From an uncultured Roseburia sp. (lineage in GTDB: Bacteria; Bacillota; Clostridia; Lachnospirales; Lachnospiraceae), in contig CAMQVP010000001.1 of assembly GCA_947038265.1 (NCBI GenBank), forward strand, positions 188,968-252,967: 64,000 nt of DNA, written 5' to 3'. How positions within the stretch are numbered: the first letter of the stretch is position 1; each line of letters starts with the position of its first letter. The notes beneath the pieces were generated by a model that searched no databases, was not told the origin of the DNA, and saw nothing but the letters and a program-made list of their open reading frames with translations. Of this stretch, positions 34,880 to 45,368 are shown in pieces. The position numbers were made by a program, and so were the translations under genes.

Positions 34880-35530
34880 CTATAATTCTAGGCGGTAGCC
34901 CATTTTGTAAACTGTTTTAATATGGTTTTCAAGCTTTAATTTTTTTCTTAGTTTCGTAATATGCACATCGACTGTCCTCGTATCTCCCATAAAATCATAT
35001 CCCCAAGCCAGTTCCAATAATTTTTCTCTCGAAAGCGCAATATTCCTGTTCAAAATCAACGCTTCCAATAGATCAAACTCCTGTTTTGCAAGTTCTGTCT
35101 CCTTGCCGCAGACCGAAACTTTCCTCGCTTTCAAATCCACTTTTGTGTCCGCAATGCAAATCCGGCTGACCGCCTTTTGCGTTTTCGTAAGAACCAGATT
35201 CACGCGCGCGATCAGTTCCAGCATCTCAAACGGTTTCGTCAAATAATCCCACGCGCCGCTTGTCAGCCCCGTCAGCTTATCCGCAATCCGGCTCTTTGCC
35301 GTCAGAAAAATCACAGGCGTTTCCCCTGTATATTCCATCAGGGAAAATCCGTCAATATGCGGCAGCATCACGTCCATAATCACAAGATCATACCTGTTAT
35401 CCGATAATAAACGCTCTTTTGCCGCTAATCCGTCATATTCCTGATCGCAGCTATGCCCTGCAAGAGCCAAGTTTTGTTTGATCAGCCTGTTAATCGGCTC
35501 CTCATCTTCTATAATTAAAATGTACGCCAT
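34880..35530 (-). CDS. OmpR-family response regulator, cognate to the upstream kinase
   Basis: 'ILIIEDEEPI', 'DLVIMDVMLPHIDG', and a winged-helix domain 'VYKMGYRLE'. The start was refined to ATG 35530, which has an AAAGGAG RBS. Confidence 0.85.
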   Translation of the reverse strand: MAYILIIEDEEPINRLIKQNLALAGHSCDQEYDGLAAKERLLSDNRYDLVIMDVMLPHIDGFSLMEYTGETPVIFLTAKSRIADKLTGLTSGAWDYLTKPFEMLELIARVNLVLTKTQKAVSRICIADTKVDLKARKVSVCGKETELAKQEFDLLEALILNRNIALSREKLLELAWGYDFMGDTRTVDVHITKLRKKLKLENHIKTVYKMGYRLEL

Positions 35531-35799
35531 TTTATATTCTCCTTTTCCGCTCCGACAAATCCGGTTTTTGCCATCATCAGCCCATTCCGTCCCTACTCTG
35601 GCATCATTATACAAAAGGCAAAAGACCGCGTCAACATATCCGCCTCCCTGCTATTTCATCTCCCCTTTTAAGGAGAATGTAAAGACTTCATTATTCCAAA
35701 AATTTTCAGAACAAATATTCGATTTTCTCTTGCAATTTGAATAATGACATGATAAAATACATTATCAAGAACATTTGTTTGCAAGTAAGGAGCATTGCT

Positions 35800-37179
35800 A
35801 TGAAGAACTCTGCCAATATCACCTTAATCCCAGACCCCATTTTACAAAAAAGCTCTCCTGCCACACACCTGTCCCCCACGATTATGGAAAAACTCACCAT
35901 TCTGGCAGACGCCGCAAAATATGACGTTGCATGCACTTCCAGCGGCGTTGACAGACGCGGCGACGGCATGGGAATCGGCAATACAAAATCCTGCGGGATC
36001 TGCCATTCCTTTTCCGCAGATGGCCGCTGTGTCTCACTGCTGAAAATTCTACTTACCAATGAATGTATTTTTAACTGCTCCTACTGCCAGAATAATTGCG
36101 AAAACGACATTCCCCGCGCCACTTTTACGCCGGAAGAAATCTGCGCGCTTACTATAGAATTTTACCGCCGCAACTACATTGAAGGGTTATTTTTAAGTTC
36201 CGGAATTATCAAGTCCCCAAATTACACCATGGATCTCATCTACCAAGTTGTCTGCCGCCTGCGTTCCTTCTACCGCTTTCAAGGCTATATCCATGTGAAG
36301 GCAATCCCCGGCGCTGACCCTCTCTTAATTGAAAAAGCGGGATTTCTTGCAGACCGCATGAGCGTGAATTTAGAATTGCCCACCCACAGAGCCTTAAAAG
36401 AGCTTGCGCCCTGTAAATCCCGCCGCACAATCCTAAGACCCATGCGCCAAATCCAAAACAGCATTGCCCAGAACAAAAATGAACTTATGCTGTACCGCAA
36501 CGCCCCCAGATTTACGCCGGCCGGACAAAGCACACAGATGATCATCGGAGCCACGCCTGAAAACGATTATCAAATTATGAGCGTTGCAGAAGGTCTTTAT
36601 CAAAACTTTGACTTAAAACGCGTCTTTTATTCCGCGTTCGTCAATGTCAGCCAAAATCCAAACCTTCCCGTCCTTTCCGGCGGCCCTCCTCTCCTGCGGG
36701 AACATAGGCTTTATCAGGCGGATTGGCTTTTACGTTACTACCATTTTACCGTAGACGAGCTTCTCTCCGAAGACCGCCCGAATTTCAACGTCTATCTGGA
36801 CCCGAAATGTGACTGGGCGCTTCGCCATTTAGAGATTTTTCCAATCGAAATCCAGACTGCCGACTATAGAACCTTACTCCGCGTCCCGGGCATAGGCGCA
36901 AAATCCGCCAAACGCATTGTAGCTGCCCGCCGCGGCTCTACGCTTGATTTTTGCGACCTAAAAAAAATCGGCGTCGTCCTAAAGCGCGCCTTATATTTTA
37001 TCACCTGTTCCGGCCATATGATGTATCCGACCAAGCTGGACGAGGACTATATCTGCCGAAACCTGCTCTCCGACAAAACGCAGATCCCAAAAGAACTGCG
37101 GGAAGAAGGCTACCGGCAGCTTTCCCTATTCGACGACGTTTCATTTGGAGGCGGCAAACATGTATGTATTTCAATGTGA
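35800..37179 (+). CDS. Putative DNA modification/repair radical SAM protein (TIGR03916-like)
   Basis: CxxxCxxC cluster 'NECIFNCSYCQN' preceded by 'CGICHSFSADGRC', with a C-terminal helix-hairpin-helix-like region. The start was refined to ATG 35800, which has an AAGGAG RBS. Confidence 0.75.
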   Translation: MKNSANITLIPDPILQKSSPATHLSPTIMEKLTILADAAKYDVACTSSGVDRRGDGMGIGNTKSCGICHSFSADGRCVSLLKILLTNECIFNCSYCQNNCENDIPRATFTPEEICALTIEFYRRNYIEGLFLSSGIIKSPNYTMDLIYQVVCRLRSFYRFQGYIHVKAIPGADPLLIEKAGFLADRMSVNLELPTHRALKELAPCKSRRTILRPMRQIQNSIAQNKNELMLYRNAPRFTPAGQSTQMIIGATPENDYQIMSVAEGLYQNFDLKRVFYSAFVNVSQNPNLPVLSGGPPLLREHRLYQADWLLRYYHFTVDELLSEDRPNFNVYLDPKCDWALRHLEIFPIEIQTADYRTLLRVPGIGAKSAKRIVAARRGSTLDFCDLKKIGVVLKRALYFITCSGHMMYPTKLDEDYICRNLLSDKTQIPKELREEGYRQLSLFDDVSFGGGKHVCISM

Positions 37180-37948
37180 AGACAGTATTGACGGAATTTT
37201 AACAGGCATCTATGATGCATGGGCGTCCCGCTATGGGCACAAAAATATACAGCTTTCCTCCGACCAAAGCGGAACGCTTACGCTTTTTTCAGAATATATT
37301 CCGGTAAAAACCGATTTTGAAAAAAGCCGGAAAGTGGCGCGTACACTGACAGAACGTCTTGGCGCCCACTTCTATGAAACAATTTGCAGCAGCGCAATGG
37401 CAAACGGAAACTGCCGCGCATTGGCTATGGATAAAGCAAATGCCATTTACCAGACTGTCGTTATGGCGCTTACGCTTCCGGCTGGCGCAAAAGTCTTAGA
37501 CTATTTAGGCGAACCCTGTATCGCCTGCATCTTTGAACTGCGCCGCCAGACGCTGAATGAAGCCCACCATCTGTTAGAATTTCTTCGTTTTGCAGAATTA
37601 AAAACCGGAATTTTATTTTCACAGATTCATGCCAAAAATTATGTCCTGCCAATTTTGGCGGAGCACTTTACCGACCGTCTCCCATTAGAGAATTTTATCA
37701 TCTACGATGCCACGCGCCGGATTGCAGCCGCCCACCCGTCGGGCAAAGGTTATTTCATCACTGACGCTGCATCTTTTCCGATGGAACTTACAGAGGATTT
37801 ATCCTCAGATGAGACACGCTTAAAAAATCTCTGGCTTGCTTTTTTTGAAACGATTGCCATAGAAGCGCGGAAAAATCCAAAACTCCAAATTCAAAATATC
37901 CCAAAAAGGTTCTGGGCGGATACAGTCGAACTGAAAAATAAAGACTAG
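37160..37948 (+). CDS. Radical-SAM-linked 'probable DNA metabolism protein' (TIGR03915-like)
   Basis: The N-terminus 'MYVFQCEDSIDGILTGIYDAW' is typical of the partner of the radical SAM enzyme. The gene overlaps the radical SAM gene by 20 nt and has a GGAGG RBS. Confidence 0.6.
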   Translation: MYVFQCEDSIDGILTGIYDAWASRYGHKNIQLSSDQSGTLTLFSEYIPVKTDFEKSRKVARTLTERLGAHFYETICSSAMANGNCRALAMDKANAIYQTVVMALTLPAGAKVLDYLGEPCIACIFELRRQTLNEAHHLLEFLRFAELKTGILFSQIHAKNYVLPILAEHFTDRLPLENFIIYDATRRIAAAHPSGKGYFITDAASFPMELTEDLSSDETRLKNLWLAFFETIAIEARKNPKLQIQNIPKRFWADTVELKNKD

Positions 37949-38057
37949 AAATAAAAATTTTACCATTATTTCTAAAATCTGGTTCTATTTCCAAAATCTC
38001 TTGCATATACTAAAAGTAAGAATAACCATGGACAAGCATGGATATGGAGGGGAAGCC

Positions 38058-38918
38058 ATGAAGGAAACAGAACAAAAGGAACAGTCCAATCAAGATAAAA
38101 TAACAAGCGGAAAGCAATTTCTTCCGCTTAATGACCTAGTCTACGCGCCCATTGACGCCATTGCCTCCTCAAATGCAAGGCTTTCACTGGCAATCCTTGA
38201 CGAAATCAAAAGCATGGGCACAGTGAAACTTAGAAACGGCGAAGAAACACTGTACCTGAAAAAATTAAATCTGGCATATGAACGCTTACACCCGGCAGAA
38301 CACAATGAACCCTATATGGAAAGCGTCCAAATCGAAGTGCCTCTGTTATCAATTATAAAAATCCCAAACTTAAAAATAAAAAATGCCACGCTAGAATTTT
38401 CAACGGAAGTCCACATTTCCGAAAACGAGCAAAACGCCCCGCTCACTGTCGGAAAAATTAGTTCCCTGAAGCGGGAAAAATCCGCCGCACAGCCCGTTGT
38501 CAACTATAAAATCGATTTAAAAGCAGTAGACGAAACGGAAGGCTATATGCGGATTTTAGACATTCTAAACGCAAATCCTGTCGCAAAGCAAATCGATGCT
38601 TCACCCATTTCAAGTGACGGAATTGTGCAAAATTCTGAAAAAGATGATTTTTTACTCCAACGTTCCCTCAGACAGCAAGAAGCGGCGTTACATAAACTGC
38701 ATCAGGAAATCACAGAATATATGGAAACAAGAGAATCTTTACAAGAAGAACTAGAGCCGGAATGCCTGTCTAAAGAGTTCTCTAACGCTCCATATGACCC
38801 AAAGGAATATGAAGAATTAAGACAAACAATCTTAACAGAACTCATAAGCGTGAAAGAAGCGATGCTAGAAAATAAAGTGGAATCCTTCAAAAAAGGAGGC
38901 GCCCCAAATGAATCCTGA
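38058..38918 (+). CDS. DUF2589-like protein (paralogue 1)
   Basis: Shares with the gene at 41014 the motifs 'LxxAPIDAIASSNARLSLAILDEI', 'IEVPLLSIIKIPNLKIKNATLEFSTEVHISE', and a C-terminal coiled coil. RBS GGAGGGG. Confidence 0.55.
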   Translation: MKETEQKEQSNQDKITSGKQFLPLNDLVYAPIDAIASSNARLSLAILDEIKSMGTVKLRNGEETLYLKKLNLAYERLHPAEHNEPYMESVQIEVPLLSIIKIPNLKIKNATLEFSTEVHISENEQNAPLTVGKISSLKREKSAAQPVVNYKIDLKAVDETEGYMRILDILNANPVAKQIDASPISSDGIVQNSEKDDFLLQRSLRQQEAALHKLHQEITEYMETRESLQEELEPECLSKEFSNAPYDPKEYEELRQTILTELISVKEAMLENKVESFKKGGAPNES

Positions 38919-39180
38919 CTGCAAAACACATTATGAAGATATAAGGTTTATTAAAACAATTACACTTGGCAGCATAAACCCGAACCACCCGCTTTCTGAG
39001 GAATCCAAACAACAGCAGGCGGCCTTGTTAAACCGATGTCTAAACGAAAGCCCAAAAGGGGTCATTATCGGCAAGGATATTTCTATTGGCAGGTACGCCA
39101 TCGGGGAACATGAACTGACAATGGAGCAGACCACCTACCATATCGGCTTTCCCCGAAAACCGATATGGTTAGAATTGTAG
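38908..39180 (+). CDS. Small hypothetical protein (90 aa) embedded in the cassette
   Basis: ATG 38908 with an AAGGAGG RBS. It overlaps the stop of the upstream gene by 11 nt. No motif was recognised. Confidence 0.45.
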   Translation: MNPDCKTHYEDIRFIKTITLGSINPNHPLSEESKQQQAALLNRCLNESPKGVIIGKDISIGRYAIGEHELTMEQTTYHIGFPRKPIWLEL

Positions 39181-39284
39181 GCTTTAAAATGGATACTTTG
39201 AAAAAATGGCTGAATTTACACCTTATGCACTCCTATTTCATGGGATTAAAAACACATTTTATGTCAAACGGAGGTTTAAAAAAA

Positions 39285-41000
39285 ATGACGGTACAAACAC
39301 ATAATGGAGAAAAGCTTCCCATATATTATTATTATCTGGCAGACTACCGCCCTATATTGGCAGACGAAGCGCAATACAGCGTATTTTTGCCAGACCAAAA
39401 AATGAAACTGAAAAATGCCAAAACCCAGAAAGGAGATGCGATGATTACAGCTTCTCAGAATACAGAAGATTCGTTTGATCAGGCGGCAGCTTCGCTTTCC
39501 GAACGGTTAAATATGGACATTTCAGATGAACTTGCAGAACTAAGGGAATCCACCCTTTCCGAACCACAGTCCTGCTCCGGCGTTATCTGCTGTATGGAAG
39601 CCATACATTCCGGTGAACTGTTTCATCAGTTTATGGAACTGCTTCCTATTTTAAATCAAATGGCAGTTCCCGTTAGAATAAATGAGGGAATTGCTCCATT
39701 TGCGGAAGCCGAATTGTCATTTTGGGACATTATGGAAGTAAATCCCCTTCCGCTTATCCAAAAGTACATCGGACAAACGCATATGATCCGGCCGCTTTTA
39801 AACTCTCCGCAAAAGCTCTCTGATTTATATGCCTCCGCCATTATGGACGTCAGCATAAATCTATATGCGGAAGAACCGTCTGAAACCCGTTATGCGCTTG
39901 TACATACACGTTTTGAAAATACCGTAAACTTCCTATTAGGCGCTGTGAGCGTTGATTTAGAAGGATATGATATCCGCGTTTCCGGATCTGACCCACATAT
40001 GCTTGGCAGACAGGTACTGTTTGCGGAACGAAATTCCAGCCAATGGGCATATAAGCCGCGGAATATGAAAGCGGATTATTTATTTACAGGGCCAAACAGC
40101 TTCATCACCTATTTAAACGAACGGCTTCCCGATGAATGCCATCTGCCGTGTATGGTTATTTTTGACAATGCAAACTACGGAATGGAAGAACTTGTCACGA
40201 AAAAGCCGGATTTTACGGAAACGGAATTACACAGTTACTACAAAAAAATGGGGGTCTTAGCCTATGCGGCAAAACTTGCAGGCGTAACCGATCTTCATCA
40301 GGACAATATCATGCCCACAGAAAACGGCCCCATCGTCCTCGATGCCGAATGCGCCTTTCAGATAAACGTCATCACTTCTGCCAGCCTAAATGCCACAATG
40401 ATTCGGGACAGTCTTTGTTCACGTCAGAACGCTTTTGGGGACGACGCCGTATCATATTTCACATTTGACGGCAAAGATGGAACTTGTTATGATAATGTTC
40501 AATTTTTTTATCCAGATTTTACAAATGGTTTTTTCACTGCAAGCCAGTATTGTATGGAACACATTGAAGAACTCTCTGATTTTTTGACTTCTTTAATCCG
40601 GCAAAATCCTCTCCTGCGTCTAGTTCCTGTCCGGACTTCAGAACTTGCGCGGGCGCTTTCAATTTATGTGGATTACGAAGATAAAGATAGGATTGCTGAT
40701 GACTACTGCAATCTCATTCAGGAAAATCTAAAAACAACGTTCTTTATACAAAATATACAGGAAAATGTGTTAAAAGAAGCCCTTCATCACAGTTTCCAGC
40801 AAGGAGATATTCCTCTAATCCAACTAGACCTTTCTACAGGAAATCTCTCGAATGTACTGATAAACGGAATGGCTTTTGCCCAAACAGATCTGTATCAGGA
40901 AACTGGCGCGATATGTGAAATTTTCAAAAATACCATTCATTATTTAGCAGAATTTTCAGCAGATGAACTAATCGAAACATTTTTACCAGTAAATGAATAA
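39285..41000 (+). CDS. Stand-alone LanM-type dehydratase-like (lipid-kinase fold, DUF4135-like) domain protein with no LanC cyclase domain
   Basis: Catalytic-type residue constellation: 'DPH' (D276/H278 in ORF numbering), K297, then 'DLHQDN' (D376-x-H378-x-x-N381) and D393 exactly 12 residues after the Asn. This spacing matches the conserved residues of class II lanthipeptide synthetase dehydratase domains. The start was chosen at ATG 39285, which has a GGAGG RBS. The longer ORF begins at 39165. Confidence 0.55.
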   Translation: MTVQTHNGEKLPIYYYYLADYRPILADEAQYSVFLPDQKMKLKNAKTQKGDAMITASQNTEDSFDQAAASLSERLNMDISDELAELRESTLSEPQSCSGVICCMEAIHSGELFHQFMELLPILNQMAVPVRINEGIAPFAEAELSFWDIMEVNPLPLIQKYIGQTHMIRPLLNSPQKLSDLYASAIMDVSINLYAEEPSETRYALVHTRFENTVNFLLGAVSVDLEGYDIRVSGSDPHMLGRQVLFAERNSSQWAYKPRNMKADYLFTGPNSFITYLNERLPDECHLPCMVIFDNANYGMEELVTKKPDFTETELHSYYKKMGVLAYAAKLAGVTDLHQDNIMPTENGPIVLDAECAFQINVITSASLNATMIRDSLCSRQNAFGDDAVSYFTFDGKDGTCYDNVQFFYPDFTNGFFTASQYCMEHIEELSDFLTSLIRQNPLLRLVPVRTSELARALSIYVDYEDKDRIADDYCNLIQENLKTTFFIQNIQENVLKEALHHSFQQGDIPLIQLDLSTGNLSNVLINGMAFAQTDLYQETGAICEIFKNTIHYLAEFSADELIETFLPVNE

Positions 41001-41013
41001 GGAGGTAACGCTT

Positions 41014-42153
41014 ATGGCGATCGGAGATCAGTTTTCAGGCCTAGATATGGGAAACCTTATCGGCGGGCCTTTACGCGCGGCTGCAGATGCAAGTATGCAG
41101 CTTGCAGACAGCACAGCGTCATTTATCAATAAAGTAGGCTTTGACGAAAAAGGGAATACACGAAAAGCCTCGTTCCAATTTGAGAAAAAATCTTATAACG
41201 AAGACGGCACCACAAATCAAGACGAAATGAAAATCGACGTGCCAATGCTTGCAATTGTCCCAATTCCAAACCTTCAGGTCGATGAAGTGAATATCTTATT
41301 TGATATGGAAGTCAAGGAAAGCGAAAAAAGTGAAAAAGCAACCGATTTAAGCGCGGCTGCTTCCGGCTCTATTAATCTTGGAATTGCAAAAGTCAATATC
41401 AGCGGAAGCGTCAGCTCCCATAGCTCCAACACTAGAAGTACGGACAATTCCGCCAAATACCACGTCGATGTGCGGGCGACCAACCATGGGACGCCGGAAG
41501 GCCTTGCCAGAGTCCTTGATATGATGGCGGCTTCCGTATCCCCAGCTCTTATTGATTCGAAAATAAAAGATGCAAACGGACAGGAACTGCCGGAAGAACG
41601 AAAAGACAGAAGCGAAAGAATCAAATCGTTGAATCAGGAAATCCTGCTTTTAGAAACCCAACAGTCCGCCGCCGAAAAAGCATTAAATGAACAATTACAG
41701 CAGTTTAAACGGATTGGCAGCCAGCAGCAAAACCAATACCAGTTAAAACTTCAGGAACTTATCAACAAAAATGAAACAGAAGAAGCGGAACAACTACAGG
41801 CAAACCTTGACCAGTTAAATACATACTGGAACACTTTCCAGACCCAAATTCCAAACGCTGTAAAATCGCTCGCTTCAAAACCTGCCCAAACGGAACCTGC
41901 CGATGCGGCAGAGCTTTCCTGCTTATTTACGCTAAAAAGCGTAAGCGACACAGGCAGTTTAGATTCCTATGCCAAAGAAGAATCTAATTATTACAGCCTG
42001 CTTGCAGAAGCGCAGAACCAGTCCGTCGAAGCGCAAAAACATGCAGATGAAATTTCCAGACAATGCAGCCAGAAAAAAATAGACTATAACAAATTAATTT
42101 CAGGAATCGAACTCAAAAAAGAGGATCAAAACAATCCTCCCTCAGAAACCTAA
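41014..42153 (+). CDS. DUF2589-like protein (paralogue 2, with a Ser/Thr-rich insert)
   Basis: 'IGGPLRAAADASMQLADSTASFI', 'IDVPMLAIVPIPNLQVDEVNILFDMEVKESE', a Ser/Thr run 'SGSVSSHSSNTRSTDNS', and a long Gln-rich coiled coil. GGAGG RBS. The ORF start overlaps the stop of the upstream gene. Confidence 0.55.
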   Translation: MAIGDQFSGLDMGNLIGGPLRAAADASMQLADSTASFINKVGFDEKGNTRKASFQFEKKSYNEDGTTNQDEMKIDVPMLAIVPIPNLQVDEVNILFDMEVKESEKSEKATDLSAAASGSINLGIAKVNISGSVSSHSSNTRSTDNSAKYHVDVRATNHGTPEGLARVLDMMAASVSPALIDSKIKDANGQELPEERKDRSERIKSLNQEILLLETQQSAAEKALNEQLQQFKRIGSQQQNQYQLKLQELINKNETEEAEQLQANLDQLNTYWNTFQTQIPNAVKSLASKPAQTEPADAAELSCLFTLKSVSDTGSLDSYAKEESNYYSLLAEAQNQSVEAQKHADEISRQCSQKKIDYNKLISGIELKKEDQNNPPSET

Positions 42154-42409
42154 ACGGCAGCGGCGGCAGGGTTATGCCCTGCCGTTTTTTATTTTGCTGT
42201 TCATTATTCTGATTTCATTTGAAAAATCTTGACATTAGGAAAAACCTGTAATATACTAGTAAAGTCTGTAAACAGTATAGAAATGAACGCCAAAGCCCCG
42301 GCATTCATTTTGACTATAAACAATGGCGGCAAAGAATCACGTCCGGACATACGGGATTTACGCCTGCCGACGACAAAATGCAACAGTTTTCATTTTAGGA
42401 GGTAAACCA

Positions 42410-42838
42410 ATGAACACATTTATGGCCAGCCCTGCTACCATTGACCGAAAATGGTATGTCGTGGATGCAGATGGAATGACATTAGGACGTTTAGCATCTG
42501 AAGTCGCTAAAATATTAAGAGGAAAAAACAAACCGATCTTTACGCCGCATATCGATACCGGCGATTATGTAATCGTAGTTAATGCCGAAAAAGTAAAAGT
42601 AACCGGAAAGAAAAAAGATCAAAAGATTTACTATCATCACTCCGATTATGTAGGCGGCATGAAAGAAACTACATTAAAAGAAATGTTAGCAAAACATCCG
42701 GAACGGGTTATGGAGCGCGCAGTAAAAGGAATGCTTCCAAAAGGGCCTTTGGGAAGGCAGATGTACAAAAAATTATTTGTATACGTTGGGCCGGAACACA
42801 AACAGGCAGCTCAGAAACCAGAAGTTTTAACATTTTAA
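42410..42838 (+). CDS. rplM: 50S ribosomal protein L13
   Basis: '[39 protein letters not shown]'. AGGAGG RBS. Confidence 0.9.
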
Positions 42839-42859
42839 CCGGTAAGGAGGTAAGTGAAA

Positions 42860-43252
42860 GTGTCTAATGCAAGATATTATGGAACAGGAAGAAGAAAATC
42901 ATCTGTTGCCAGAGTATATTTAATTCCGGGAACAGGTAAAGTTACAATAAATAAAAGAGACATTGATGATTATTTAGGATTGGAAACCTTAAAAGTGATT
43001 GTACGCCAGCCATTAGTGGCTACAGAAACTGTTGATAAATTCGACGTTTTAGTAAACGTAAAAGGCGGCGGCTATACCGGTCAGGCAGGAGCAATCCGCC
43101 ACGGCATTGCAAGAGCGCTGCTTCAGGCAGATTCAGACTATCGTCCAGTTCTTAAATCGAACGGATATCTTACCAGAGATCCAAGAATGAAAGAGCGTAA
43201 GAAATACGGCCTCAAGGCGGCTCGTCGCGCTCCGCAGTTCTCAAAGAGATAG
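42860..43252 (+). CDS. rpsI: 30S ribosomal protein S9
   Basis: '[14 protein letters not shown]', the C-terminal '[14 protein letters not shown]', and a GTG start after an AAGGAGG RBS. Confidence 0.9.
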
Positions 43253-43463
43253 GAAAAGGAATATCGAGTACGGATTTTATCTCTTTTTATATAAAATCCC
43301 AGTGGATATTTATTAGAAAATGAATATAATGTAAATAAGAAGTTCAGATGAACCTCTTATTATTCTGCCGGAACTGCATATCGGCATTTATAGAAAAGGC
43401 GCAGATACAAATATTTTTCGCTACCCAGCGAGCGACTAACAAATGGCTGGGATACAAATATTT

Positions 43464-43492
43464 ACGCTCCGCTTAACAGCGGAGCGCTTTTG
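43464..43492 (+). terminator. Intrinsic terminator of rplM-rpsI
   Basis: Hairpin 'cgctccgc ttaaca gcggagcg' followed by 'cTTTTgt'. Confidence 0.6.
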
Positions 43493-44061
43493 TACATAGG
43501 AAATAATTTGAATACAGGTAACTTTTATTTTATTAAGGATGAATATTATAATGCTTTCCAAATTGTGGATTGATGGGAAATAAAGATAATGATGAAAAGG
43601 GTGTACATGGGAGACCCTGTTTTTATTGTTTTGAAATGGAAGGATATTTATGGATGGTTCCTATATCATCTAAAACGGAAAAGTATAAGATATTTATATA
43701 ATGAAAAGAAAAACGTTATAAGGAATACGATGGTTTACGATTCGGATATGTAAATGGTAAATATAGAGCTTTTTTAATTCAGAATGTTTGTCCTGTAAGT
43801 AAAGAGTATATTGACTGTCAGTATATGATTAAAAACAATACTGTGCCGGTCAAGATAAATGATAAACTGACGGCAGAAATAAATGGTATTGTGAAAAAGG
43901 TGATCAGACTAAATAAAAGAGGAATCCAGATTGTTTTGATGGACATAAATCATACATTAAACAGCCTGAATAAACCTAAGTGAGTGAATATGAATGTTTA
44001 TGATTGCCGAAAAATAAGGCTTTGAACTTATGCAGGAGATAATCATCAACATAACAAATTA

Positions 44062-44094
44062 TGGAAAACCCTTGAAAATATATTATTTTCAAGG
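44062..44094. terminator. Bidirectional intrinsic terminator (12-bp perfect stem CCCTTGAAAATA/TATTTTCAAGGG plus a T6 tract) downstream of htrA
   Basis: Read directly as 'aaaacccttgaaaatatattattttcaagggtttttt'. Confidence 0.65.
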
Positions 44095-44165
44095 GTTTTT
44101 TGCCTTTCTTATTCTAATTTGCAGTATTTGCAGTAAAAGCTAGGACTATGCCAAAAGCCAAACCA

Positions 44166-45368
44166 TCAGTCCGTCCTAGCCGTTAATGAAACGGAAACCT
44201 CCTTTTCCAAATACCCGCCGTTGTCCGCTACCTGAACTGTAACCATTACCGCATCTCCAACCTGATAATCCCTGAGCGCCTCTTTTAAATCGTCCATGGA
44301 CACGATTTCCTTATCTCCCACTTTCGTAATAATATTGCCCTCGATTATGCCGGCTGCCTCGGCTCCGCCGCCTTCAATCACCTGCGCAACATAAACGCCA
44401 CGCGGCATCTGGTACTGGCTGGAAACTTCTTCCGTTACCTCTTTTCCATAAATGCCAAGATATGGGCTGCCTGTCGTCGTCACTTTCCCGTTTGCAACCA
44501 AATCTTCCAAAATCGGGCCTGCCGTCGCGATTGGAATCGCAAAGCCCATACCCTCTACCTTCGTATCTGAATATTTTGAAGAATTAATCCCGATTACCTC
44601 GCCTTTTGTATTAATCAGCGCTCCGCCGCTGTTGCCCGGATTAATTGCCGCATCCGTCTGAATCAGACGGCTCATTACGGTCTCTCCGGTAGATTCATCC
44701 TGAAATGTCACCTCACGCCCTAATGCGCTAATCACGCCAGTTGTCACCGACTGACCGTACCCTAACGCGTTACCGATAGCGATCGCGGAATCCCCGACAG
44801 AAATCTTTTCCGAATCGCCCATAACCGCAAGTTGTATTGTTTTCAAAGTTTCCTCTGTCAAATCTGACAGCTTTATCTGGACAACCGCCAAATCATCGGC
44901 CGGATCTGTGCCGCGCACCGTTGCGGGAGCCGTCGTCTCATCGGAAAACTGCACCGTCAAAGCATTCGCGCCTTCTACCACATGATTATTCGTCGCAACA
45001 TACAAATACTCGTCATCTTTATCAATCAAAATTCCGGAACCGCTGCTCTCACTTTCAAACATTCTGTTCTGTCCAAAAAAGCTTAAAATTTCCTGCTGCG
45101 TCATGCTCGTAATAGATACAATCGATGGCATAACGTCTTTTACCACGCCTGAAATATCTGTGGAAGCGGAAGTCGCCCCTGTGCTCACCGGCTGAATCTT
45201 GTCGGAATCAATCGTCTTTCCCTCCTCAGTCACTTCTTTTCCATCTGCAAAGAGATTACTTTCCATAAAATAATTCGCTCCGGAAAACGCTGTTCCTCCA
45301 ACCACTCCAAACACCAGAGCCAGAGCCGCGCATTTCGTTACCTTACCCATAAATTTTGAACTTCCCAT
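44166..45368 (-). CDS. htrA: HtrA/DegP-family serine protease (membrane anchor, trypsin-like domain, PDZ domain)
   Basis: N-terminal TM segment, catalytic His/Asp, 'GNSGGALIN' (Ser), and a C-terminal PDZ domain. Confidence 0.85.
   Translation of the reverse strand: MGSSKFMGKVTKCAALALVFGVVGGTAFSGANYFMESNLFADGKEVTEEGKTIDSDKIQPVSTGATSASTDISGVVKDVMPSIVSITSMTQQEILSFFGQNRMFESESSGSGILIDKDDEYLYVATNNHVVEGANALTVQFSDETTAPATVRGTDPADDLAVVQIKLSDLTEETLKTIQLAVMGDSEKISVGDSAIAIGNALGYGQSVTTGVISALGREVTFQDESTGETVMSRLIQTDAAINPGNSGGALINTKGEVIGINSSKYSDTKVEGMGFAIPIATAGPILEDLVANGKVTTTGSPYLGIYGKEVTEEVSSQYQMPRGVYVAQVIEGGGAEAAGIIEGNIITKVGDKEIVSMDDLKEALRDYQVGDAVMVTVQVADNGGYLEKEVSVSLTARTD

Follow-up and report, generated by a model that had tools for sequence, protein, structure and literature searches.

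A cyclase-less LanM-type kinase–lyase homologue in a DUF2589 operon of an uncultured Roseburia species

The dehydratase domain of the lanthipeptide synthetase CylM has a lipid-kinase fold, in which K274, D347, H349, N352 and D364 serve phosphorylation and D252, H254, R506 and T512 serve phosphate elimination, a step that the T512A mutation abolishes (PMC4550811). Related enzymes that dispense with cyclization include HomMD, a stand-alone LanM dehydratase in the hominicin (daptide) pathway (PMC12749797), and CcaM (LanMbC) of the dehydrazoles, a cyclase-inactive DUF4135 enzyme in a pathway for a peptide made by ribosomes and modified after translation (RiPP) (PMC10676384). In extracellular contractile injection systems (eCISs), an N-terminal DUF4157/eCIS_core domain marks the associated toxins (PMC8213781). 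Here we report a computational analysis of a four-gene cassette, genes A to D, in a 64,000-nucleotide (nt) stretch of DNA from an uncultured Roseburia sp. (contig CAMQVP010000001.1, positions 188,968 to 252,967; this whole stretch is hereafter the window), in which two DUF2589 paralogues, A and D, flank a 90-residue protein, B, and a cyclase-less LanM-type protein, C. As judged by alignment, C keeps every residue that CylM needs for Ser/Thr phosphorylation and phosphate elimination. Its nearest relatives form a cyclase-less clade, often tagged with eCIS_core, and are not lanthipeptide synthetases. The cassette itself is a variant of a widespread, uncharacterized operon with a core of A, D and B, to which the closest relatives of the window add a small module, C′, and the enzyme is an optional addition in the lineage of the window and two others, tied physically or by position to C′. 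We tentatively propose that C is a kinase–lyase head that docks through C′ on a DUF2589 assembly.

Domain and catalytic residues of C

The four open reading frames (ORFs) are co-directional on the + strand and span 38058–42153 of the window. Their coordinates and main features are as follows, with C′ delimited by alignment and a hidden Markov model (HMM) and the D coiled coil taken from an AlphaFold 2 (AF2) model.

38058–38918, + strand: gene A, 286 aa, DUF2589 paralogue
38124–38573, + strand: DUF2589 domain of A (residues 23–172), followed by a helical/coiled-coil tail
38908–39180, + strand: gene B, 90 aa, no family
39165–41000, + strand: gene C, 611-aa ORF with the C′ module, a linker and a cyclase-less LanM-type kinase/phosphate-lyase domain
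39165–39389, + strand: C′ module, the first ~75 aa of ORF C
39270–39287, + strand: internal GGAGG and ATG (39285), start of the 571-aa version of C
39954–40397, + strand: kinase core of C (residues 264–411)
40617–40637, + strand: R485 and T491 of C
40803–40814, + strand: GDIP motif of C
41014–42153, + strand: gene D, 379 aa, DUF2589 paralogue (the ORF track opens at 40993)
41047–41529, + strand: DUF2589 domain of D
41401–41451, + strand: Ser/Thr-rich strand region of D, S130–S146
41593–42102, + strand: C-terminal coiled coil of D, high-confidence

An earlier reading of the DNA letters without database searches (the sequence-only reading) had described C as a cyclase-less LanM-type dehydratase of kinase fold, and profile searches bear this out. 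C matches PF13575 (DUF4135) in Pfam with an E-value of 2.4e-25 (90 bits, cut-off 29), although the match spans only profile positions 48–183 of 378, and phmmer against Protein Data Bank (PDB) sequences retrieved LicM2 (E 1.8e-8) and CylM (E 1.9e-5). In the phmmer alignment, C residues D276, H278, K297, D376, H378, N381 and D393 (numbered in the 611-aa ORF) fall on CylM D252, H254, K274, D347, H349, N352 and D364, respectively. The D/H/K/N/D residues that the sequence-only reading had picked out thus sit on catalytic positions of CylM, and their spacing is exact: K297 lies 21 residues after D276, the D376-L-H-Q-D-N381 motif at +100, and D393 12 residues after N381. A family profile built from 42 members aligns with CylM at E 7e-30, and its second aligned stretch places R485 on CylM R506, T491 on T512 and the GDIP motif on CylM 561–564. 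All nine CylM residues therefore have an aligned counterpart in C, which argues that the complete kinase and lyase set has been kept, the mapping being by alignment of sequences and profiles only. In a 79-sequence family alignment, seven of these residues do not vary, and D276 and H378 hardly do (at least 90%), with invariant residues seen in the 42-sequence alignment as well; among the kinase residues, K297, D376, N381 and D393 are invariant and H378 is nearly invariant.

C lacks the LanC-like cyclase domain, the protein ending at residue 611, and scores 67.9 bits against the full-length TIGR03897 model, which does not pass the cut-off of 304. No LanA precursor, LanT, LanC or immunity gene was found among the ORFs in and around the cassette. 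C is not a lanthipeptide synthetase, nor does the locus represent a canonical lantibiotic cluster, in agreement with the sequence-only reading, which had thought such a cluster unlikely.

Relatives of the enzyme and their link to eCISs

An exhaustive HMMER search with a profile built from three enzyme sequences retrieved 3,424 representatives at E ≤ 1e-3, 45 of them at E ≤ 1e-30. The best-scoring family members are 410–850 aa long, and cyclase-less relatives score at E 1e-30 to 1e-57, whereas sequences of LanM length (~900–1,090 aa, classed by length only) reach no better than E ~1e-13 to 1e-15. A LANC_like domain was found in none of 79 family members and in none of the 78 nearest representatives of C. 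PF13699 (eCIS_core/DUF4157) occupies the N terminus of 17 of the 78.

Two relatives are encoded inside eCIS operons (L006 and L007), together with Tail_P2_I, eCIS_core, a Pvc15-like AAA ATPase, a PAAR-like DUF4280 protein and Pvc16_N, and four loci carry direct eCIS_core–DUF4135 fusions:

L016, 3382–6060: eCIS_core–DUF4135 fusion
L017, 7041–9134: eCIS_core–DUF4135 fusion
L018, 2348–4894: eCIS_core–DUF4135 fusion
L021, 2–2101: eCIS_core–DUF4135 fusion

An AAA ATPase gene lies immediately upstream of the fusion in L016 and L018, and the fusion in L017 has Pvc16-like and DUF4280-like neighbours. DUF2589 occurs in none of the fetched eCIS-linked or fusion enzyme loci. DUF4135 is not listed as an eCIS toxin domain in PMC8213781 or its 2024 successor, in main text or supplements.

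Two side observations concern this clade. In L007 (4514–4759) and L006 (4603–4848), the genes for eCIS_core and the AAA ATPase flank one for an 81-aa Cys-rich CPCC protein (PF14206), two genes upstream of the DUF4135 gene. Separately, a 556-aa protein of a Cardinium endosymbiont, for which a distant similarity to a type 2 lanthipeptide synthetase is reported (PMC12560110), has a length that fits the cyclase-less clade; the same paper also cites work on a contractile injection system.

The cassette in other genomes

Close homologues of C fell into only three clusters in a word-indexed search (100%, 42% and 40% identity), each of which repeats the gene order of the window, while the flanking genes differ (L004, L001/L002 and L003/L005). 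The gene order, whose conservation the sequence-only reading had proposed to check, thus recurs. Its members are nevertheless distributed unequally: D homologues form more than 2,130 clusters against three of the enzyme, and every more distant relative of the enzyme occurs without DUF2589, often beside eCIS genes. The independent distribution that the sequence-only reading had named as contrary evidence is thus half borne out. Among the matches listed, D homologues show full-length identities of 50–73%, and the named sources are Lachnospiraceae, Clostridium or Acetatifactor metagenome-assembled genomes. Homologues of A number 35, at 31–46% identity.

Loci L008–10 and L026–31 contain A, B, C′ as a small ORF of 74–83 aa, and D, with no enzyme. 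Beyond these, a local HMM of B found the protein directly after the second DUF2589 gene in five further loci:

L011 and L013: clostridial loci, B match
L023: deltaproteobacterial plasmid, B match at E 3e-26
L032: high-GC contig, B match
L033: Vibrio tubiashii plasmid, B match at E 3e-24

The trio of A, D and B is thereby found across phyla, in Clostridia, Deltaproteobacteria, Gammaproteobacteria and the high-GC contig (L011, L013, L023, L032, L033 and L035–37), and because B recurs beside DUF2589 pairs in this way, we regard DUF2589-A, DUF2589-D and B as the conserved unit. These neighbourhood associations rest on a few dozen loci. In viral contigs (IMG/VR), we found one locus for D-type proteins and none for C or enzyme relatives, a near-absence from which we conclude that phages do not carry the cassette.

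Upstream of the enzyme-less cassettes in L008–10 and L028–29 lies a gene for a DUF4303 protein (L008, 5785–6390; L028, 3714–4265), and downstream, on the opposite strand, in L008–10, L026–27 and L028, one for a FlxA-like coiled-coil protein (L008, 9340–10173; L026, 8383–9285; L028, 7106–7960). Since these genomes share wider synteny, both linkages may be inherited rather than functional.

DUF2589 proteins A and D, and protein B

As the sequence-only reading had it, A and D are DUF2589 paralogues: they match PF11655 at E 7e-17 (62.6 bits) and E 1e-40 (139.6 bits), respectively, against a cut-off of 23, and are 25% identical to each other (E 4e-12). Each consists of a β-rich DUF2589 domain and a coiled coil. 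B has no match in Pfam, NCBIfam, PADLOC or PHROGs, and from one lineage to another it is ~70% identical from end to end. PADLOC and PHROGs scans of A to D gave nothing significant, and none of the four proteins has a transmembrane segment. An hhalign comparison of the DUF2589 profile with two unannotated proteins of the eCIS locus L007 found no relationship, and the searchable literature holds no published function for DUF2589.

The sequence-only reading had also proposed that the Ser/Thr run of D, SGSVSSHSSNTRSTDNS (residues 130–146), is a substrate of the enzyme, and this is not supported. The DUF2589 domain of D is highly conserved between these loci, and its segment ISGSVSSHSSNTRSxDNSAKYHV is nearly invariant across D-type proteins, including that of the deltaproteobacterial plasmid, whether the enzyme is present or not. 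That it is kept in enzyme-less cassettes argues against the run being a substrate motif specific to the enzyme. Comparison of cassettes with and without the enzyme, across phyla, revealed no enzyme-specific Ser/Thr sites in A, B or D.

The C′ module and the start of C

The N-terminal module of C is homologous to a stand-alone 74–86-aa gene of enzyme-less cassettes, as found by alignment and a local HMM. C′ is a separate gene in L005, L008, L026, L029 and L030, whereas the window and L001 have it as part of the enzyme ORF; in L005, it lies directly upstream of a 533-aa DUF4135 gene. Among DUF4135 family members, we found C′ in these two fusions and in no other. C′ is a core subunit of the cassette in the clade of the window. 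An hhalign comparison of C′ with a ~100-aa protein, X, that lies between A and D in other clostridial loci gave a probability of 2%, with only an LNxRLL motif in common, which does not establish homology.

These relationships bear on the length of C. The 571 aa given by the sequence-only reading match the NCBI call, but the ORF is open to 611 aa, and because its first ~75 residues match a stand-alone protein, the sequence 5′ of 39285 is coding. C thus probably exceeds 571 aa. The overlap of B with C′, 16 nt in the window, is also kept in L008. The GGAGG at 39270 is specific to the lineage of the window, which has NGG codons where relatives have DGS. Since this motif lies 10 nt 5′ of the in-frame ATG at 39285, there may be a second, shorter isoform of 571 aa that lacks half of C′.

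Larger DUF2589 loci

Larger versions of the operon occur in four clostridial loci, which have much of one layout in common with elements that vary:

L013, 5995–13928: Amidase_2, A, X, D, B, STAS, Cache-HAMP-SpoIIE-HATPase_c_2; Phage_lysozyme further downstream
L035, 2477–11520: Amidase_2, adjacent Phage_lysozyme, A, X, D, B, STAS, 360–380-aa protein, Cache-HAMP-SpoIIE-HATPase_c_2; integrase
L036: integrase, Amidase_2, A, X, D, B; without Phage_lysozyme, STAS or Cache-HAMP-SpoIIE-HATPase_c_2
L037, 4905–12559: fused Amidase_2-Phage_lysozyme, A, X (uncalled ORF), D, B, STAS, 360–380-aa protein, Cache-HAMP-SpoIIE-HATPase_c_2; integrase

Protein X is a called gene in L013, L035 and L036. The deltaproteobacterial DUF2589 locus carries a GerE regulator and an N-acetylmuramidase. 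The hydrolases of the larger loci have no signal peptide, and no protein of the larger clusters except the sensor has a transmembrane segment, so that no holin is present. On these grounds, that is, the flanking amidase/lysozyme genes whose products lack signal peptides, the switch of STAS, PP2C and anti-sigma kinase, and the lack of a holin, the DUF2589 assembly probably has a role connected with the cell envelope or with lysis, a link drawn from gene neighbourhood only. eCIS_core proteins are encoded beside the DUF2589 loci L011 and L037; in L037, an integrase gene and the end of a gene for a 1,231-aa eCIS_core protein lie upstream of the cluster.

A model for C and its alternatives

We give a probability of roughly 0.45 to the reading that C is a modular protein Ser/Thr kinase–lyase head, docked by C′ on a DUF2589 assembly, whose target lies outside the cassette, as for an effector; such an outside target seems somewhat more likely than a subunit of the cassette. 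The N-terminal module would pick the partner machine, eCIS_core leading to an eCIS and C′ to a DUF2589 assembly. Once docked via C′, C would phosphorylate Ser/Thr of a protein and would then probably β-eliminate the phosphate, leaving dehydroalanine or dehydrobutyrine. That the closest relatives of the enzyme carry an eCIS cargo tag suggests that C probably acts on proteins and makes no lantibiotic.

Several observations weigh against this proposal. PF13699 was found neither in C (Pfam) nor in the 64-kb window (jackhmmer), and a scan of the window ORFs up to ~15 kb from the cassette showed no eCIS genes. The window also contains no peptidoglycan hydrolase, and no immunity-like gene, as a toxin might need, is evident near C. 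The DUF2589 proteins have neither signal peptide nor transmembrane segment, so that delivery by them is not indicated. AF2 models of full-length D and of its DUF2589 domain (73-sequence alignment) have a predicted local distance difference test (pLDDT) score below 50 over most of that domain, and a Foldseek search of the low-pLDDT domain model against the PDB returned nothing at E ≤ 0.001. The enzyme may start at 39285, which would split the C′ module in half. Finally, that C shares its operon with A, B and D is just as compatible with a modification of cassette proteins.

The last point leads to the alternative that survives best, possible but on balance unlikely, which takes up the sequence-only reading and in which C would phosphorylate or dehydrate Ser/Thr of A, D or B and thereby switch the DUF2589 assembly, replacing the STAS/PP2C/kinase partner switch of the larger DUF2589 loci. 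The genes are translationally coupled in a single operon, the C′ fusion tethers the enzyme to the other cassette proteins, and LanM enzymes usually modify substrates encoded beside them; moreover, related DUF2589 loci hold regulators of Ser phosphorylation (STAS and SpoIIE-HATPase_c_2), and D has a conserved Ser/Thr-rich segment. However, neither this segment nor A, B and D elsewhere differ in essence between cassettes with and without the enzyme, across phyla, nearly all cassettes do without it, and relatives of the enzyme are found without DUF2589, bearing eCIS cargo tags.

It is improbable that C acts as a kinase only, on proteins, lipids or small molecules and with no lyase step, through a fold like that of phosphatidylinositol kinases (PI3K/PI4K), or that it is a pseudo-enzyme scaffold. 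The lipid-kinase fold of the CylM dehydratase domain (PMC4550811), a PI3_PI4_kinase match in one member of the enzyme family and the limited extent of the Pfam match of C would all fit such a role. Yet R485 and T491, together with the P-loop residues D276 and H278, are kept across the clade and align with CylM R506, T512, D252 and H254, and this clade-wide retention of elimination residues makes the absence of a lyase step hard to explain.

We see even less room for an anti-phage or abortive-infection module with C as sensor or effector. The cassette is mobile, with varied genomic neighbourhoods and variable accessory content, and integrases and lysis enzymes lie near its larger versions; set against this, A, B and C have no PADLOC match and D only a sub-threshold one (DruG, E 0.03, 10.9 bits), the IMG/VR counts given above (one D locus, no C locus) are minimal, and the neighbours in the window are housekeeping genes with no defence island.

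A cryptic RiPP cluster, in which B or C′ would be a precursor peptide dehydrated by a stand-alone LanM (LanMD-type), is hardly credible: B and C′ are small and encoded beside the enzyme, and stand-alone or cyclase-inactive DUF4135 enzymes are known (HomMD, PMC12749797; CcaM, PMC10676384), but B is conserved throughout with no hypervariable Ser/Thr/Cys-rich core, persists in enzyme-less cassettes and in Proteobacteria, protease, exporter, cyclase and tailoring genes were not found nearby, and the spaces between the genes leave no room for a peptide gene that annotation might have missed.

Returning to C as a kinase–lyase head on a DUF2589 assembly, one may extend the proposal to a general scheme, which we consider distinctly unlikely as a whole. 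LanM-type kinase–lyase domains would have been repurposed as protein-dehydrating effectors, in eCISs via eCIS_core and here via C′ and DUF2589, and the DUF2589 assembly would be a hitherto unrecognized, holin-independent, phospho-regulated envelope-breaching or release system, its larger forms paired with cytoplasmic endolysins. To our knowledge, LanM-type dehydratases have been described solely as enzymes of peptide natural products. If the proposal for C is true, a protein-acting LanM clade, marked for contractile injection systems or anchored to a different machine, would extend lanthipeptide chemistry to effector biology, with a single domain carrying out the kinase and phospholyase steps for irreversible Ser/Thr dehydration. 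In addition, A, D and B (plus C′ in the relatives nearest to the window) constitute a testable multi-component system around DUF2589, a family that counts over 2,000 protein clusters in gut Clostridia and extends to several phyla, and its recurrence beside holin-less endolysin-like enzymes suggests a lysis or release role worth probing. For annotation, C-like proteins should not be labelled lanthipeptide synthetases, nor such loci lanthipeptide clusters.

Gene junctions and surroundings

The sequence-only reading had described stop/start overlaps at the gene junctions and a separate GGAGG ribosome-binding site for each gene. Overlaps are present between A and B (11 nt, the ATG of B lying within the 3′ end of A) and, given a C start at 39165, between B and C (16 nt). 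C and D, in contrast, are separated by a 13-nt gap, the C stop (40998–41000) being followed by GGAGG at 41001 and ATG at 41014. The ribosome-binding sites are as described: the + strand from 37900 to 42400 contains exactly four GGAGG motifs (38046, 38895, 39270 and 41001), each 7–10 nt 5′ of an ATG (38058, 38908, 39285 and 41014), the one assigned to C preceding the ATG at 39285. We found no + strand terminator or clear promoter between the cassette and the upstream genes. Downstream, two features follow gene D:

42162–42186, + strand: strong intrinsic terminator with an 11-bp stem, seven GC pairs and a T-run, which closes the operon
42229–42257: rplM promoter-like site, 3′ of the terminator

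The radical SAM pair that the sequence-only reading had noticed is indeed directly upstream, with a TIGR03916 (radical SAM) gene at 35737–37179 and a TIGR03915/DUF4130 gene at 37145–37948. The two overlap by 35 nt, the TIGR03916 protein has helix-hairpin-helix motifs, and the pair is a known putative DNA-repair pair linked to uracil-DNA glycosylase. Because related cassettes have other flanking genes, its position beside the cassette is incidental. Other neighbours are two-component systems, rplM/rpsI downstream and a gene for an HtrA-like protease. Public records label the cassette proteins as "DUF2589/DUF4135 domain-containing" or "hypothetical", with C as 571 aa (NCBI).

An Rfam search found no RNA family within 35000–44500. 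Between rpsI and the HtrA-like protease gene, the AT-rich segment 43253–44165 (913 nt) has no ORF of at least 60 aa, no tRNA and no Rfam match, and holds short out-of-frame ORF fragments that resemble a decayed gene; a likeness of the fragments at 43490–43990 to a ToxN/AbiQ gene received no support from Pfam. A 116-aa antisense ORF inside gene D (41274–41624, − strand) is seemingly kept in L001 and L005. It is a by-product of the conserved coding sequence of D and thus not evidence of a gene.

Comparison with known systems

Relative to the lanthipeptide synthetases CylM (PDB 5DZT) and LicM2 (PDB 6ST5), C has the DUF4135 domain, all nine aligned catalytic residues and the GDIP motif, and it ends about where the LanM dehydratase domain ends. 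It differs in the missing LanC-like cyclase, in a locus without LanA, LanT or an immunity gene, and in its N-terminal ~260 aa, which carry C′ and are unrelated to LanM. HomMD and CcaM resemble C in having a DUF4135 domain without lanthionine cyclization; they belong to RiPP clusters with precursor and tailoring enzymes, whereas C lies in a DUF2589 operon with none of these. With eCIS toxins (PMC8213781), C shares the layout of an N-terminal adaptor and a C-terminal enzymatic domain, but has C′ where its relatives have eCIS_core.

The larger DUF2589 loci recall phage-type holin–endolysin cassettes in carrying Amidase_2 and lysozyme/muramidase genes whose products lack signal peptides, but these loci contain no transmembrane holin candidate and the window contains no hydrolase; a membrane-breaching role for DUF2589 is purely hypothetical. 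The phosphothreonine lyases OspF, SpvC and HopAI1 irreversibly convert Ser/Thr of their targets to dehydro-amino acids, which would also be the outcome of the proposed reaction of C. Their fold is unrelated to that of LanM and a host kinase must phosphorylate the target first, whereas a LanM-type domain performs both steps. The searchable literature contains no description of this cassette or of a link between eCISs and DUF4135. Stand-alone LanM dehydratases in RiPP pathways are already known, and what is new relative to that literature is a LanM-type domain in a non-RiPP DUF2589 operon, belonging to an eCIS-tagged clade.

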